Shown: positions 1,920-48,600 of the stretch, piece by piece | How the letters are laid out: each line of letters starts with the position of its first letter | Numbering within the stretch: the first letter of the stretch is position 1 | Assembly: GCF_041886205.1 (NCBI RefSeq) | Contig: NZ_CP169029.1 | Strand: one strand, 5' to 3' | Origin: Escherichia coli | GTDB lineage: Bacteria > Pseudomonadota > Gammaproteobacteria > Enterobacterales > Enterobacteriaceae | Length of the DNA stretch: 64,000 bases | Translations under genes and position numbers: made by a program | Notes under the pieces: generated by a model | What the model saw: the letters and a program-made list of their open reading frames with translations, nothing else | Databases searched by the model: none | What the model was told of the DNA's origin: nothing

Positions 1920-3140
1920 ATGGCAATGAGTGAACAACCCCAGCCTGTGGCGGGCGCGGCTGCGTCAACGACCAAGGCCCGAACATCGTTTGGTATTTTA
2001 GGTGCTATCAGCCTCTCGCATCTGCTGAACGACATGATCCAATCGCTGATTCTGGCGATTTATCCGCTGCTTCAGTCAGAATTTTCTCTGACATTTATGC
2101 AGATTGGCATGATAACCCTCACCTTCCAGCTCGCCTCTTCGCTACTGCAACCAGTGGTCGGCTACTGGACCGATAAATATCCGATGCCGTGGTCGTTGCC
2201 AATTGGCATGTGCTTTACCTTAAGTGGTCTGGTGCTGCTTGCGCTGGCGGGCAGTTTTGGCGCAGTTCTGCTGGCGGCGGCGCTGGTCGGTACCGGTTCA
2301 TCGGTCTTTCATCCGGAATCTTCTCGCGTGGCCCGTATGGCTTCCGGCGGGCGGCATGGCCTGGCACAATCTATCTTTCAGGTCGGCGGCAACTTTGGCA
2401 GTTCCCTGGGACCCTTGCTGGCGGCGGTGATTATCGCGCCTTATGGCAAAGGCAACGTTGCCTGGTTTGTGCTTGCGGCACTGCTGGCGATCGTGGTGTT
2501 GGCACAAATCAGCCGTTGGTACTCGGCACAGCACCGAATGAATAAAGGAAAACCCAAAGCGACGATAATCAATCCACTGCCGCGCAACAAAGTGGTACTG
2601 GCAGTCAGCATTCTGTTAATCCTCATTTTCTCGAAATATTTCTATATGGCGAGCATCAGCAGCTATTACACCTTTTATCTGATGCAAAAATTCGGATTAT
2701 CTATCCAGAATGCCCAGCTTCATCTGTTTGCCTTCCTGTTTGCCGTTGCGGCAGGTACGGTGATCGGCGGGCCTGTAGGGGATAAAATTGGACGGAAATA
2801 TGTGATTTGGGGCTCTATCCTCGGCGTTGCGCCGTTTACGCTGATTTTACCCTACGCCAGCCTGCACTGGACGGGGGTTTTAACGGTGATTATTGGATTT
2901 ATCCTCGCTTCGGCATTCTCTGCCATTCTGGTCTACGCTCAGGAGCTACTTCCGGGACGTATCGGTATGGTTTCTGGACTCTTTTTCGGTTTTGCTTTTG
3001 GCATGGGAGGTCTGGGAGCGGCAGTTCTGGGGCTTATCGCCGATCACACCAGCATCGAGTTAGTCTATAAAATCTGTGCTTTCCTGCCACTATTGGGGAT
3101 GTTGACCATATTCCTGCCTGATAACCGGCATAAAGACTGA
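1920..3140 (+). CDS. fsr: MFS transporter, fosmidomycin resistance protein
   Basis: 406-aa polytopic membrane ORF; recognised as Fsr; divergent from ushA as in K-12. Confidence 0.93.
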   Translation: MAMSEQPQPVAGAAASTTKARTSFGILGAISLSHLLNDMIQSLILAIYPLLQSEFSLTFMQIGMITLTFQLASSLLQPVVGYWTDKYPMPWSLPIGMCFTLSGLVLLALAGSFGAVLLAAALVGTGSSVFHPESSRVARMASGGRHGLAQSIFQVGGNFGSSLGPLLAAVIIAPYGKGNVAWFVLAALLAIVVLAQISRWYSAQHRMNKGKPKATIINPLPRNKVVLAVSILLILIFSKYFYMASISSYYTFYLMQKFGLSIQNAQLHLFAFLFAVAAGTVIGGPVGDKIGRKYVIWGSILGVAPFTLILPYASLHWTGVLTVIIGFILASAFSAILVYAQELLPGRIGMVSGLFFGFAFGMGGLGAAVLGLIADHTSIELVYKICAFLPLLGMLTIFLPDNRHKD

Positions 3141-3149
3141 TTTCATTGC

Positions 3150-3176
3150 AGCCAAAGGCAAACTTTGGCTGCATCG
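3150..3176 (+). terminator. hairpin downstream of fsr (GCAGCCAAAG...CTTTGGCTGC)
   Basis: 10-bp inverted repeat with 5-nt loop immediately after fsr stop, followed by a T-containing stretch. Confidence 0.5.
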
Positions 3177-3377
3177 TTTTACAGTCGCCATAAGCCTTTC
3201 CTCTGTTAAACCGCCTTCTGTTTTCCGATCCGTGCTTTTTTTGCAGCTAATTCCATTTTTCTGCAAAATTCAATAATTATTCATGAACATCATCAATGAA
3301 ATTGTCATAAACTATTACCTGTAATTTTGGTTTTCCCGGCCAAAAATGGACAATAACCACCAGGAAAAGGAGACGGA

Positions 3378-5054
3378 ATGCATCACGCCACCCCGCTTAT
3401 CACCACCATTGTTGGCGGCCTTGTGCTCGCCTTTATCCTCGGCATGCTGGCCAATAAACTACGTATTTCTCCTCTGGTGGGATATCTGTTAGCGGGTGTG
3501 CTGGCAGGACCATTCACTCCGGGCTTTGTTGCCGATACCAAGCTTGCCCCGGAACTGGCTGAACTGGGCGTCATTCTGTTGATGTTTGGCGTCGGTTTGC
3601 ACTTTTCGCTGAAGGATTTGATGGCGGTAAAGGCCATCGCCATTCCCGGTGCGATCGCCCAGATAGCCGTGGCGACGCTGCTGGGTATGGCGCTCTCTGC
3701 CGTGCTGGGCTGGTCGTTAATGACCGGTATCGTGTTCGGTTTATGTCTTTCCACCGCCAGTACCGTGGTGTTACTGCGCGCACTTGAAGAACGGCAATTA
3801 ATTGACAGTCAGCGTGGGCAAATCGCCATCGGTTGGTTGATTGTGGAAGACCTGGTAATGGTTCTGACGCTGGTGTTGCTGCCCGCAGTGGCAGGAATGA
3901 TGGAACAGGGCGATGTGGGCTTTGCCACTCTTGCAGTCGATATGGGGATCACCATCGGCAAAGTGATCGCATTTATCGCCATTATGATGCTGGTAGGTCG
4001 CCGTCTGGTGCCGTGGATTATGGCACGCAGCGCGGCAACCGGTTCTCGCGAGCTGTTTACCCTGTCGGTGCTGGCGCTGGCGTTAGGGGTTGCCTTTGGT
4101 GCGGTAGAGCTGTTTGATGTCTCCTTTGCACTCGGTGCGTTCTTTGCCGGGATGGTACTGAACGAGTCTGAACTGAGTCACCGTGCCGCCCACGATACGC
4201 TGCCATTGCGCGACGCGTTTGCGGTGCTGTTTTTTGTCTCCGTCGGGATGTTGTTTGATCCGTTAATTCTGATTCAGCAACCGCTGGCAGTGCTGGCGAC
4301 GCTGGCGATTATTCTGTTTGGTAAGTCGTTAGCCGCATTTTTCCTGGTGCGACTGTTTGGTCACTCCCAACGTACGGCATTAACCATCGCCGCCAGCCTG
4401 GCGCAGATTGGTGAGTTCGCGTTTATCCTGGCGGGACTGGGAATGGCATTGAATTTACTGCCGCAGGCCGGACAAAACCTGGTACTGGCAGGGGCGATCC
4501 TGTCGATTATGCTCAACCCGGTACTGTTCGCACTACTGGAGAAATATCTGGCGAAGACCGAAACGCTGGAAGAGCAGACGCTGGAAGAGGCAATCGAAGA
4601 AGAGAAGCAGATCCCAGTGGATATTTGCAACCATGCGCTACTGGTGGGTTACGGTCGTGTAGGCAGCCTGCTGGGGGAGAAATTGCTCGCCTCTGATATT
4701 CCGCTGGTGGTGATTGAGACGTCACGAACCCGTGTTGATGAGCTGCGAGAGCGCGGGGTCCGCGCAGTATTGGGCAATGCGGCGAACGAAGAAATTATGC
4801 AACTGGCGCATCTGGAATGTGCAAAATGGCTGATCCTGACGATTCCCAACGGTTATGAAGCGGGTGAGATTGTGGCATCTGCCCGCGCGAAAAATCCGGA
4901 TATTGAGATTATTGCCCGCGCCCATTATGACGATGAAGTGGCGTATATCACCGAACGTGGTGCGAATCAGGTAGTGATGGGCGAGCGTGAAATCGCCCGT
5001 ACCATGCTGGAACTGCTGGAAACGCCACCGGCGGGTGAGGTGGTGACGGGGTAA
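3378..5054 (+). CDS. ybaL: CPA2-family cation:proton antiporter with C-terminal TrkA-N (NAD-binding) domain, KefC-like
   Basis: 558-aa ORF; N-terminal multi-TM domain, C-terminal GYGRVG Rossmann motif; matches YbaL length. Confidence 0.93.
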   Translation: MHHATPLITTIVGGLVLAFILGMLANKLRISPLVGYLLAGVLAGPFTPGFVADTKLAPELAELGVILLMFGVGLHFSLKDLMAVKAIAIPGAIAQIAVATLLGMALSAVLGWSLMTGIVFGLCLSTASTVVLLRALEERQLIDSQRGQIAIGWLIVEDLVMVLTLVLLPAVAGMMEQGDVGFATLAVDMGITIGKVIAFIAIMMLVGRRLVPWIMARSAATGSRELFTLSVLALALGVAFGAVELFDVSFALGAFFAGMVLNESELSHRAAHDTLPLRDAFAVLFFVSVGMLFDPLILIQQPLAVLATLAIILFGKSLAAFFLVRLFGHSQRTALTIAASLAQIGEFAFILAGLGMALNLLPQAGQNLVLAGAILSIMLNPVLFALLEKYLAKTETLEEQTLEEAIEEEKQIPVDICNHALLVGYGRVGSLLGEKLLASDIPLVVIETSRTRVDELRERGVRAVLGNAANEEIMQLAHLECAKWLILTIPNGYEAGEIVASARAKNPDIEIIARAHYDDEVAYITERGANQVVMGEREIARTMLELLETPPAGEVVTG

Positions 5055-5059
5055 ACGGT

Positions 5060-5180
5060 GGTTGCCGGATGTAAAATATGAAAAATATGTAGGCATGATA
5101 AGACGCGCCAGCGTCGCATCAGGCATCGAGAGCCAAATGCCAGATGCGGCGTGAACGCCTTATCTGGCCTACGAACCGAC
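5060..5180. repeat. REP/BIME cluster between ybaL and gsk
   Basis: Two or more REP units with the GCCTGATGCGACGC / GCCAGATGCGGCGTGAACGCCTTATCTGGCCTAC motif read directly. Confidence 0.6.
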
Positions 5181-12488: not shown

Positions 12489-14420
12489 TCAAATGGGGCG
12501 GATACTTTCTTCATCCAGCTCCGCATCGAAAAACCGACGCAGGGTCTGAATATTATTATCCGCAATAATGGACTCGCGCGCCTGCGCAAGTTTTTCTTCG
12601 TATATCGCCTGACGCCACTCCAGCGGCGTACGCACCGCGGGATTATCATCTTCAACGATAGTCAGTTCAACCGTTGAACCTTTTAACATGCTCAACGCTT
12701 CAGCCAGTTTTTGCTGTGCACCGCGGTTGTTCAAATGCCGCTGAGAGGAGCGCAAATGCAGACATACTGCGTTGTCGCTCTCCTCTTTCCAGGCATTTAA
12801 CGCCACCTGTTCGACCAGTTTTGGTAGCGAAAGTTGGCTCACCTGTGCCGCCCACGGGTCGCGCTCAATGGCTTCTGCCGCCAGCTTCGCCGCCAGTTCC
12901 GGCGTTTTTTCATGTTCCAGCGCTTTTTTCAGCGCCTTCGGCGTGGCGACCACTTCTTTTTGCTGCATCACTGGAGTGGTAGCCTTCCAGCGATACGCTT
13001 CTTTTTTGGCTGGCGCTTTTTCCAGCGCCGATGGCACCGGACGCGCCTGAACGCGATCGGTGACCGAAGCCAGTCTTTCCAGCGCAGCGTTATTCACCGG
13101 CCGCGCGCGGGTAGCGGCTGCCGGTTCACTCTTTTTTGCTTTGGTTGCTCCCTGCACGCGCTGCAACTGCTGGCGCGCCGCCAGCACCTGGCTGGTGGTT
13201 TCCGGGAGCGGTACAGTCGGTGCCTGCTGCGGCGCTGATTGCGGTTGCGGCGGCACCTGGGTTGGCGTCATTACTGCCGTTGGCGCGACGGGCGCAAAGG
13301 ACTGGCGTGGCACTTCTGGCTCAGGCAGAGGCATACGTGGATGGAACGCCAGCGCGCGCAGCAGCGTCATCTCAACGCCCATGCGGCGGTCCGGCGCATA
13401 CGGTAATTCTTTGCGACCAATCAACAGCGTCTGATAGTAAAGCTGAATATCCGTCGGCGGTATGGTGCGCGCCAGTTCACGCATCCGCAGCTCAATGGCG
13501 GCCATGTCGTTGCCAAGTGCAGCAGGCGAAAGTTGTACCATCGCAATACGATGCAACAGGCCGAGCATTTCCACCAGCAACGCTTCCCACTCGATACCAC
13601 GGGCAGCGGCTTCATTAATCAGCGCCATTACGCGCTCGCCGTTGGCCTCGACCATCGCTTCAACCAGCGACAGCGCCTGATCGTCATCAAGCGTACCCAG
13701 CATCGCACTGACTGCCTGGGTTGAAACCTGGCCGTCACCGCTGGCAATCGCCTGGTCGGTCAGACTTAAGGCATCTCGCAGGCTGCCTTCAGCGGCGCGC
13801 GCCAGCAATTGCAACGCCCGCGGCTCGTGAGCGATATGTTCTTCGTTGAGGATGTGCTCAAGTTGATGGCGAATTTGCTCGACATCCAGCGCCTTGAGAT
13901 GAAATTGCAAACAGCGCGACAAAATCGTCACCGGCAATTTCTGTGGATCGGTCGTCGCCAGCAGAAACTTAACGTGCTCCGGCGGCTCTTCAAGGGTTTT
14001 TAACAGTGCGTTAAAGCTGTGGCGCGACAGCATATGCACTTCGTCGATCAGATAAACTTTGAAACGACCACGCGCCGGAGCGTACTGGACGTTATCCAGC
14101 AGGTCGCGGGTATCTTCAACTTTGGTGCGCGAGGCGGCGTCGATTTCAATCAGATCGACAAAGCGCCCCTGCTCGATTTCACGACAGTTATCGCACACGC
14201 CGCACGGCGTCGCGGTAATGCCGGTTTCGCAGTTTAGCCCCTTCGCCAGCAGTCGGGCGATAGAGGTTTTTCCGACGCCACGGGTGCCGGAAAAAAGATA
14301 AGCATGATGAATACGCCCTAACGACAAGCCGTTCGCCAGTGCGGTCAGCACATGTTCCTGGCCGACGACGTCAGCAAAGGTTTGTGGGCGCCATTTTCGG
14401 GCTAAGACCTGATAACTCAT
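12489..14420 (-). CDS. dnaX: DNA polymerase III tau subunit (gamma by programmed frameshift)
   Basis: 643-aa ORF with AAA+ clamp-loader motifs; recognised as DnaX. Confidence 0.96.
   Translation of the reverse strand: MSYQVLARKWRPQTFADVVGQEHVLTALANGLSLGRIHHAYLFSGTRGVGKTSIARLLAKGLNCETGITATPCGVCDNCREIEQGRFVDLIEIDAASRTKVEDTRDLLDNVQYAPARGRFKVYLIDEVHMLSRHSFNALLKTLEEPPEHVKFLLATTDPQKLPVTILSRCLQFHLKALDVEQIRHQLEHILNEEHIAHEPRALQLLARAAEGSLRDALSLTDQAIASGDGQVSTQAVSAMLGTLDDDQALSLVEAMVEANGERVMALINEAAARGIEWEALLVEMLGLLHRIAMVQLSPAALGNDMAAIELRMRELARTIPPTDIQLYYQTLLIGRKELPYAPDRRMGVEMTLLRALAFHPRMPLPEPEVPRQSFAPVAPTAVMTPTQVPPQPQSAPQQAPTVPLPETTSQVLAARQQLQRVQGATKAKKSEPAAATRARPVNNAALERLASVTDRVQARPVPSALEKAPAKKEAYRWKATTPVMQQKEVVATPKALKKALEHEKTPELAAKLAAEAIERDPWAAQVSQLSLPKLVEQVALNAWKEESDNAVCLHLRSSQRHLNNRGAQQKLAEALSMLKGSTVELTIVEDDNPAVRTPLEWRQAIYEEKLAQARESIIADNNIQTLRRFFDAELDEESIRPI
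13131..13137 (-). promoter_or_regulatory. dnaX: dnaX programmed -1 ribosomal frameshift heptamer A AAA AAG (gives gamma subunit)
   Basis: Plus-strand cttttttgc at 13131-13139 is the reverse complement of GCAAAAAAG; encoded ...AKKSEP...; GC-rich stem-loop follows on the mRNA (13101-13128). Confidence 0.8.
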
Positions 14421-30262: not shown

Positions 30263-30616
30263 CTATTCGTCGATGATTGACTCGAATCCGCCATAGATCA
30301 TTCGCTTGCCGTCAAACGGCATGGACTCGCCGAACTCTTTCATCCGTGGGTCCGACATCATCTTTTGATTAGCAGCGTCGCGGACCTCTTTTGAAGGGTA
30401 TTCAATCCAGCTAAAGACAACCTCTTCATTCTCTTCCGCTTTCACCGCCATACGAAAATCGGTCACTTTGCCATCCGGTACATCGCTGGCCCAGCATTCG
30501 ACAATACGAAGCGCGCCAAACTCTTTAAACAATGGCGCAGCCTTAGCGGCCATTTCCCGATAGGCATCCTTTTTATCGGCAGGAACGGCAACCACAAAAC
30601 CATCAACATACTTCAT
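30263..30616 (-). CDS. ybaA: DUF1428-family protein YbaA
   Basis: 117-aa ORF; K-12 synteny adjacent to ffs. Confidence 0.9.
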   Translation of the reverse strand: MKYVDGFVVAVPADKKDAYREMAAKAAPLFKEFGALRIVECWASDVPDGKVTDFRMAVKAEENEEVVFSWIEYPSKEVRDAANQKMMSDPRMKEFGESMPFDGKRMIYGGFESIIDE

Positions 30617-30726
30617 CAGACATACCTCCGAAGCGTACTGCGCAGCCAGACAATTCTTGCGACGTCAGTTGTGGTTAAAGTTTAGCCATGTTGGGATTTT
30701 TTGACGAAACGGTGGGAGGCAGAAAT

Positions 30727-30840
30727 GGGTGGGGGCCCTGCCAGCTACATCCCGGCACACGCGTCATCTGCCTTGGCTGCTTCCTTCCGGACCTGACCTG
30801 GTAAACAGAGTAGCGTTGCGGGAGAACCAACAGAGCCCCC
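30727..30840 (-). ncRNA. ffs: 4.5S RNA (signal recognition particle RNA)
   Basis: Plus strand 30727-30840 is the exact reverse complement of the 114-nt E. coli 4.5S RNA as I recall it (GGGGGCUCUGUUGGUUCUCCCGCAACGC...GGCAGGGCCCCCACCC). Confidence 0.95.
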
Positions 30841-30916
30841 ATTGAGAGCGTTGAGAACCAACGCGCAGGCGCATTATCACTGCTGCCCCGGCTAATTGCA
30901 ACCCATCGCGTGCCAG

Positions 30917-31306
30917 ATGCTGGTTTCTTGCGCAATGCGACTTCACTCGGGCGTTTTTCCAGATTATGCTGAAAAATTACCTCAGGAAGAAAAGATGGAA
31001 AAAGAAGATTCATTTCCCCAACGCGTCTGGCAAATCGTCGCCGCTATTCCCGAAGGCTATGTCACCACTTACGGTGATGTGGCGAAACTGGCGGGATCGC
31101 CCCGCGCCGCGCGCCAGGTGGGCGGTGTGTTAAAGCGTCTCCCTGAAGGCAGCACCTTACCCTGGCACCGGGTGGTTAATCGCCACGGCACAATTTCGCT
31201 AACCGGACCGGATTTACAGCGTCAGCGACAGGCATTACTGGCAGAAGGTGTGATGGTATCGGGAAGCGGGCAAATCGACTTGCAGCGTTATCGCTGGAAC
31301 TACTAA
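30917..31306 (+). CDS. atl: alkyltransferase-like DNA-binding protein ATL (YbaZ)
   Basis: 129-aa from MLVSCAMRLHSGVF; Ada/Ogt-like C-terminal fold with the conserved motif but no active-site cysteine; ORF-track start at 30896 is over-extended. Confidence 0.9.
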   Translation: MLVSCAMRLHSGVFPDYAEKLPQEEKMEKEDSFPQRVWQIVAAIPEGYVTTYGDVAKLAGSPRAARQVGGVLKRLPEGSTLPWHRVVNRHGTISLTGPDLQRQRQALLAEGVMVSGSGQIDLQRYRWNY

Positions 31307-48413: not shown

Positions 48414-48600
48414 AGAGCTCTCTCTTAGTTTAATTTCCGCCAGGTAATCAGATGACACGACTGTGCTTCACGCCATCTATTAACATGTACGTCAGTATAT
48501 GGGGATGTTTCCCCCACATTCAACGCCGAGAATAGAGGAAAAATTAAAGGGGAGATAAAATCCCCCCTTTTTGGTTAACTAATTGTATGGGAATGGTTAA

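Follow-up and report, generated by a model that had tools for sequence, protein, structure and literature searches.

The single-copy ffs gene for 4.5S RNA in an Escherichia coli chromosomal stretch, and two chance open reading frames that overlap it in sense

Introduction

The mature 4.5S RNA scaffolds the interaction between Ffh and FtsY in co-translational membrane targeting. Structured RNA genes can also give rise to false proteins, and open reading frames (ORFs) called over them are among the entries collected in AntiFam. In E. coli K-12, the 4.5S RNA is encoded by ffs (b0455), a gene of the Rfam family RF00169 located between atl/ybaZ and ybaA. Its precursor carries a 5′ leader that is removed by RNase P (PMC7049720, PMC5499578). 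By RNA-seq, the 5′ ends of pre-4.5S RNA were found mainly at −26, with minor ends near −127 and −153, while an older estimate gave a leader of 22 nt and the substrate used in vitro had one of 23 nt (PMC5499578). The binding of Ffh and the stimulation of the Ffh-FtsY GTPase cycle are also documented in the literature, on a K-12 sequence identical to the one described here (PMC7049720, PMC5499578).

Here the analysis concerns a window of 64,000 nt from the E. coli contig NZ_CP169029.1, to which all coordinates below refer unless another record is named. A sequence-only reading of this window had assigned positions 30727–30840 to the canonical 114-nt ffs 4.5S RNA in the ybaA-atl intergenic region, and had dismissed as almost certain artefacts two overlapping minus-strand ORFs of 112 aa (30675–31013) and 60 aa (30764–30946).

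Results

Identity and genomic context of the RNA gene

Read directly, the reverse complement of window positions 30727–30840 (minus strand) is a 114-nt sequence running from GGGGGCUCUGUUGGUUCUCCCGCAACGC to GGCAGGGCCCCCACCC, the complete RNA being GGGGGCUCUGUUGGUUCUCCCGCAACGCUACUCUGUUUACCAGGUCAGGUCCGGAAGGAAGCAGCCAAGGCAGAUGACGCGUGUGCCGGGAUGUAGCUGGCAGGGCCCCCACCC. The surrounding 401 nt (30600–31000) showed 100% identity to E. coli K-12 MG1655, whose RefSeq record carries a single feature here, “ffs: signal recognition particle sRNA small type”, and no CDS over ffs. The gene lies, as had been proposed, between ybaA (30263–30616, minus strand; DUF1428, Pfam E = 2e-48) and the MGMT-family gene atl (30995–31306, plus strand; Pfam DNA_binding_1, E = 2e-27; RefSeq start at 30995). 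The local order in the RefSeq K-12 record is amtB, tesB, ybaY, the MGMT-family protein gene (atl/ybaZ), ffs, ybaA, pdeB and ylaC, and the synteny tesB-ybaY-atl-ffs-ybaA-pdeB, together with the ffs sequence and promoter, is identical in the window. Nothing distinguishes the locus from K-12 ffs in sequence (over the 401 nt), neighbours, fold or domain IV motif, although the window presents it in the reverse orientation of the standard K-12 map. Both the identity to MG1655 and the gene order support orthology with the experimentally characterized E. coli ffs. The sequence-only reading had left the strand of the RNA gene unstated; it is the minus strand, the same as that of the 112-aa and 60-aa ORFs, both of which are therefore sense overlaps.

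Family membership was examined with Rfam, the scan that had been suggested as a check on the assignment. The RF00169 model (Bacteria_small_SRP) matched 30736–30832 on the minus strand with 68.1 bits (E = 5e-14), well above the gathering score of 40 and over the full model (positions 1–97 of 97), and the same match was recovered at ffs when the whole window was scanned. These 97 nt are also what RefSeq/PGAP annotates as ffs, the SRP_RNA feature at positions 2669–2765 of the locus mapping to window 30832–30736, and the mature RNA is longer than this feature by 8 nt at its 5′ end and by 9 nt at its 3′ end.

In its minimum free energy fold (−57 kcal/mol, z = −3.15), the 114-nt RNA forms one long hairpin with a GGAA tetraloop at its tip. 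The domain IV (helix 8) core, GGUCAGGUCCGGAAGGAAGCAGCC, occurs as an exact 24-mer at 30775–30798 (minus strand) with the tetraloop at RNA positions 53–56, and its apex combines the GGAA tetraloop with a short closing helix and conserved internal-loop flanks. The sequence-only reading had tied its assignment to an Rfam match and an undisrupted domain IV hairpin; the core proved intact, in a locus identical to K-12 throughout. It is well established that the Ffh M domain binds this core. When the genomes of 100,044 species were scanned with the core GGTCAGGTCCGGAAGGAAGCAGCC as query, the identical domain IV 24-mer was found at at least 120 loci in very diverse bacteria, the matches listed spanning Proteobacteria, Actinobacteria, Firmicutes, Chloroflexi, Planctomycetes and others.

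Covariation was analyzed with RNAalifold on an alignment of 102 distinct small-type SRP RNA sequences from diverse bacteria. The single extended hairpin was recovered, with double compensatory changes in 12 of its 18 consensus pairs. Paired cells amounted to 91.8% as against 76.4% in shuffled alignments, double-change cells numbered 263 against 76, and the covariation score was 0.427 against 0.158, with controls in which the pairing partner was slid giving 0.09–0.19 (maximum 0.194); none of 500 shuffles matched the observed values for pairing, double changes or covariation. The pair at alignment columns 44/69, which flanks domain IV, illustrates this covariation (CG 39, GC 28, UA 26, AU 4). 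Seven apex pairs are invariant by ascertainment, having been fixed by the search pattern, and are uninformative either way. The 4.5S RNA is under RNA-level selection.

Copy number and conservation

Among 5,426 complete E. coli genomes, the 114-nt RNA was present at full length and once per genome in 5,424, with at least 99% identity in 5,420 of them. These counts bear on the reading of the locus as a non-functional extra copy or pseudogene of ffs, for which no supporting point was found; with one place per genome in the 5,424 genomes, and with sequence, promoter and synteny identical to K-12, its probability is negligible. The longer 401-nt stretch including both flanks (30600–31000) also found a match in 5,424 of the 5,426 genomes, with an identity of only 95–99% in 450.

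Some departures from this pattern were observed. The ffs match was missing in two of the 5,426 genomes and lay on a plasmid-labelled record in two others; because ffs is essential, the genomes lacking a match probably reflect assembly or labelling problems. For the 401-nt region, 64 E. coli genomes had no match at 80% and some had two places, which suggests insertions in the flanks.

Four Enterobacteriaceae relatives were aligned to the locus: E. albertii, Citrobacter werkmanii, Enterobacter sp. Bisph1 and Superficieibacter electus. Identity to E. coli was 97–100% over the mature RNA, 75–93% over the promoter and leader, 49–83% with indels upstream of the −35 hexamer, and 35–77%, again with indels, directly 3′ of CACCCATTT. 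Conservation extends through CACCCATTT and then collapses to 35–37% identity with indels. Seven substitutions fall within the RNA in the close relatives, and at least four of them keep the RNA base pair intact. Specifically, G27-C80 is replaced by A-U in Citrobacter and U38-A68 by C-G in Enterobacter, while Superficieibacter has the wobble pairs G27-U80 and U38-G68 at the same two positions, pairing in the predicted fold being kept in every case.

The 112-aa open reading frame

The larger ORF (30675–31013, minus strand, ATG start) exists exactly as had been described, and its 5′ end overlaps the first 19 nt of atl in antisense (30995–31013). It could be taken for a real protein gene, read from 31013 to 30675 and overlapping ffs in sense, which would make this a dual-coding locus. 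The frame begins with ATG and is open not only in E. coli but also in Citrobacter werkmanii (117 aa) and Enterobacter sp. Bisph1 (119 aa), and a few GenBank genomes list the 112-aa sequence as a “hypothetical protein” (e.g. AFG39350.1, CAR01799.1 and ANK05803.1), the depositions coming from E. coli P12b, S88 and O25b:H4 and from Shigella dysenteriae. However, the corresponding protein cluster has 9 members, whereas more than 5,400 complete genomes contain the DNA, and RefSeq calls no CDS. In E. albertii and Superficieibacter, the frame is no longer than 59 aa.

The way in which the sequence changes among relatives also argues against a protein. In the 112-aa frame, each of the seven substitutions within the RNA is non-synonymous and affects the first or second codon position (R>H, R>C, Y>H, R>G, R>E). 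Purifying selection on a protein would have left the reverse pattern. In the flanks conservation is lost and indels are not multiples of three; in Enterobacter, the part upstream carries such indels and the translation is unrelated outside the RNA and promoter.

No family match was obtained for the 112-aa sequence, either in Pfam at E ≤ 1 or in NCBIfam. With 18 long window genes as the training set for codon log-odds, the ORF scored −0.22 bits/codon in frame, with shifted frames no worse, whereas the control genes ybaA, atl, ybaY, pdeB and tesB had positive in-frame scores (+0.15 to +0.35) and negative ones in the other frames. The ATG corresponds to position −173, upstream of all reported transcript 5′ ends (−26, −127 and −153), and GGGGAA abuts the ATG, too close for good ribosome-binding-site spacing. 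The open frame in Citrobacter and Enterobacter and the few hypothetical-protein deposits do not outweigh these other tests, and a protein gene at this position is very improbable. The 112-aa ORF is a chance open frame with no coding signal.

The 60-aa open reading frame

The smaller ORF (30764–30946, minus strand, GTG start) was likewise found exactly as described. Here the alternative is a small protein translated from the minor, upstream-initiated ffs transcripts. Transcripts starting near −127 and −153 (PMC5499578) would contain the GTG, which lies at −106, and E. albertii keeps the ORF intact. Against this, the ORF is absent from the three other relatives, Citrobacter, Enterobacter and Superficieibacter having no start codon and the first two also having a stop in this frame 55 nt upstream of the domain IV motif. 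No Shine-Dalgarno sequence was found upstream of the GTG (AATCTGGAAAAACGCCCGA-GTG), and the very stable 4.5S hairpin would enclose the 3′ part of the ORF.

For the 60-aa ORF there was no Pfam hit at E ≤ 1 and a single noise match in NCBIfam (E = 0.14; 11 bits, the cut-off being 70), the exact 60-aa sequence was absent from a collection of 15 billion proteins, and the in-frame codon log-odds were −0.21 bits/codon, with shifted frames no worse. A small protein of this kind is thus a most doubtful proposition, and translation of the minor transcripts (starting ~127–153 nt upstream; PMC5499578) from the GTG at 30946 is one to which we give hardly any weight. If true, it would make ffs a dual-function RNA/small-protein locus restricted to Escherichia. 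Rather, the 60-aa ORF is, like the larger one, a frame open by chance with no coding signal.

Taken over both ORFs, neither family homology, nor a frame kept with synonymous bias, nor gene-like codon usage was found. Family searches, frame conservation, substitution pattern, codon usage and RefSeq annotation all point to non-coding sequence, in line with the sequence-only judgement that the ORFs are artefacts. Sense ORFs over the SRP RNA were common among 103 diverse loci, and which frame is open varies by taxon (42, 41 and 17 loci per frame), as is expected of chance frames in G+C-rich, stop-poor sequence.

Promoter, leader and transcript ends

A consensus scan identified a sigma-70 promoter-like site at 30873–30901 on the minus strand (9 of 12 matches), consisting of the −35 hexamer TTGCAA (30901–30896), a 17-nt spacer and the −10 hexamer GATAAT (30878–30873). 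Both hexamers are conserved in five Enterobacteriaceae, and we infer that TTGCAA-17-GATAAT is the ffs promoter. Directly 3′ of the −10 hexamer is a G+C-rich stretch, GCGCCTGCG (in the region 30848–30872, minus strand), which presumably resembles the discriminators of stringently controlled stable-RNA promoters. The reported start at −26 corresponds to window position 30866, 7 nt past the −10 hexamer, so that the position of the putative promoter agrees with the published 5′ end (PMC5499578). The precursor 5′ leader of ~22–26 nt, removed by RNase P, occupies 30841–30866 on the minus strand (PMC5499578, PMC7049720). Within this region a small hairpin is predicted at 30848–30864 (minus strand), its stem GCGTTG/CAACGC being invariant and its loop variable in five Enterobacteriaceae.

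At the other end of the gene, the terminator scan found no canonical terminator downstream of ffs. The sequence AUUUCUG directly following the mature 3′ end (30720–30726, minus strand) is the probable end of the primary transcript, a placement near the mature 3′ end that was chosen because conservation stops right after CACCC-ATTT. At its 3′ end, the primary transcript is probably only a few nucleotides longer than the mature RNA, and 3′ exonucleases would then trim it. A terminator-like site at 30849–30835 was rejected as a chance match; it spans the leader/mature junction inside the gene, and 0.8 such sites were expected in shuffled sequence.

The flank shared by ffs and atl

Upstream of the ffs −35 hexamer, three blocks are conserved in five Enterobacteriaceae. 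The first, at 30913–30936, is a near-palindrome formed by ATTGCGCAAG with AAACCAGCAT, and the two others are GTGAAG (30941–30946) and CAGCATAA (30963–30970). On the plus strand, the latter two read as TTCACT-17-TATGCT, a plausible candidate for the atl promoter, and the near-palindrome could be a regulator site shared by the divergent ffs and atl. Upstream of its RefSeq start at 30995 (103 aa), atl has two further possible starts, a TTG at 30896 (136 aa) and an ATG at 30917, and a long form of Atl would overlap the ffs promoter. The conserved block at 30913–30936 was considered as support for a longer Atl N-terminus, but this reading was rejected: in Enterobacter and Superficieibacter, indels that are not multiples of three (5 and 8 alignment columns) lie between the ATG at 30917 and that at 30995.

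Other RNA elements and SRP RNA loci

The Rfam scan of the window also returned, above the gathering scores, the sraA sRNA (48485–48580, plus strand, 106.7 bits), the dnaX programmed-frameshift element (13092–13156, minus strand, 96.8 bits) and naRNA4 (5092–5169, minus strand, 74.3 bits), three elements that this part of the E. coli chromosome is expected to contain. A tRNA/tmRNA scan of the window found nothing.

A search of a phage collection with the ffs region gave a single match, to positions 301–471 of the unannotated 9,135-bp record OR845144.1 (Escherichia phage EC22.5-2), at 100% identity. At these positions the record probably carries a piece of the host chromosome, packaged or mis-assigned, and not a phage gene; the match has no bearing on the ffs finding.

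Two copies of the SRP RNA, ~10 kb apart and in the same orientation, were observed in Stutzerimonas urumqiensis T3 (NZ_RBZQ01000004.1; positions 2829–4458 of locus L108 and 832–945 of locus L109). The first copy is complete, and its upstream sequence can be aligned with the region preceding the SRP RNA gene in P. asuensis, while the second is without the first ~8 nt and the upstream region, leaving a direct repeat of ~106 nt. A 481-aa ORF right after the first copy is a tyrosine integrase (PF00589, E = 2e-12, with a SAM-like domain and DUF6538). The arrangement looks like an integrated island of ~10 kb that used ffs as its attachment site. A phage attachment site in ffs was described as novel in Enterococcus in 2025 (PMC12540744).

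Discussion

We put the probability at about 98% that 30727–30840 on the minus strand is ffs, the single-copy 114-nt gene for mature 4.5S RNA, the RNA subunit of the bacterial signal recognition particle, and that both overlapping ORFs are chance frames which are not translated. Its identity as ffs draws on the sequence, the K-12 identity, the copy count and the fold, and was demonstrated here along with the family membership, the covariation and the lack of coding signal in the ORFs.

For the steps from transcription to function, a scheme may be proposed that combines the locus sequence with the literature. Transcription would start at the sigma-70 promoter TTGCAA-17-GATAAT (30901–30873), giving a precursor with a 5′ leader of ~22–26 nt that RNase P cuts off; this processing, like the SRP function, is taken from the literature. 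The promoter and the end point of transcription are deduced from consensus and conservation, and the trimming from general knowledge, with the transcript ending perhaps a few nucleotides past the hairpin before its 3′ end is trimmed. In the mature hairpin, the apical domain IV, with its GGAA tetraloop and internal loops, binds the Ffh M domain to form the signal recognition particle, and this particle brings ribosomes making membrane proteins to FtsY at the membrane.

Both ORFs are open by chance over an RNA gene that is G+C-rich, stop-poor and invariant in sequence, and over its promoter. In this they resemble the AntiFam-type spurious ORFs over structured RNA, which are likewise sense frames on a conserved non-coding RNA, at times named “hypothetical protein”, without coding signal.

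The ffs gene is already known as a textbook essential RNA gene, and its presence here brings no new biology for the window. The value of the finding lies in quality control: mechanical ORF tracks over ffs, and the few “hypothetical proteins” deposited there, should be discarded.
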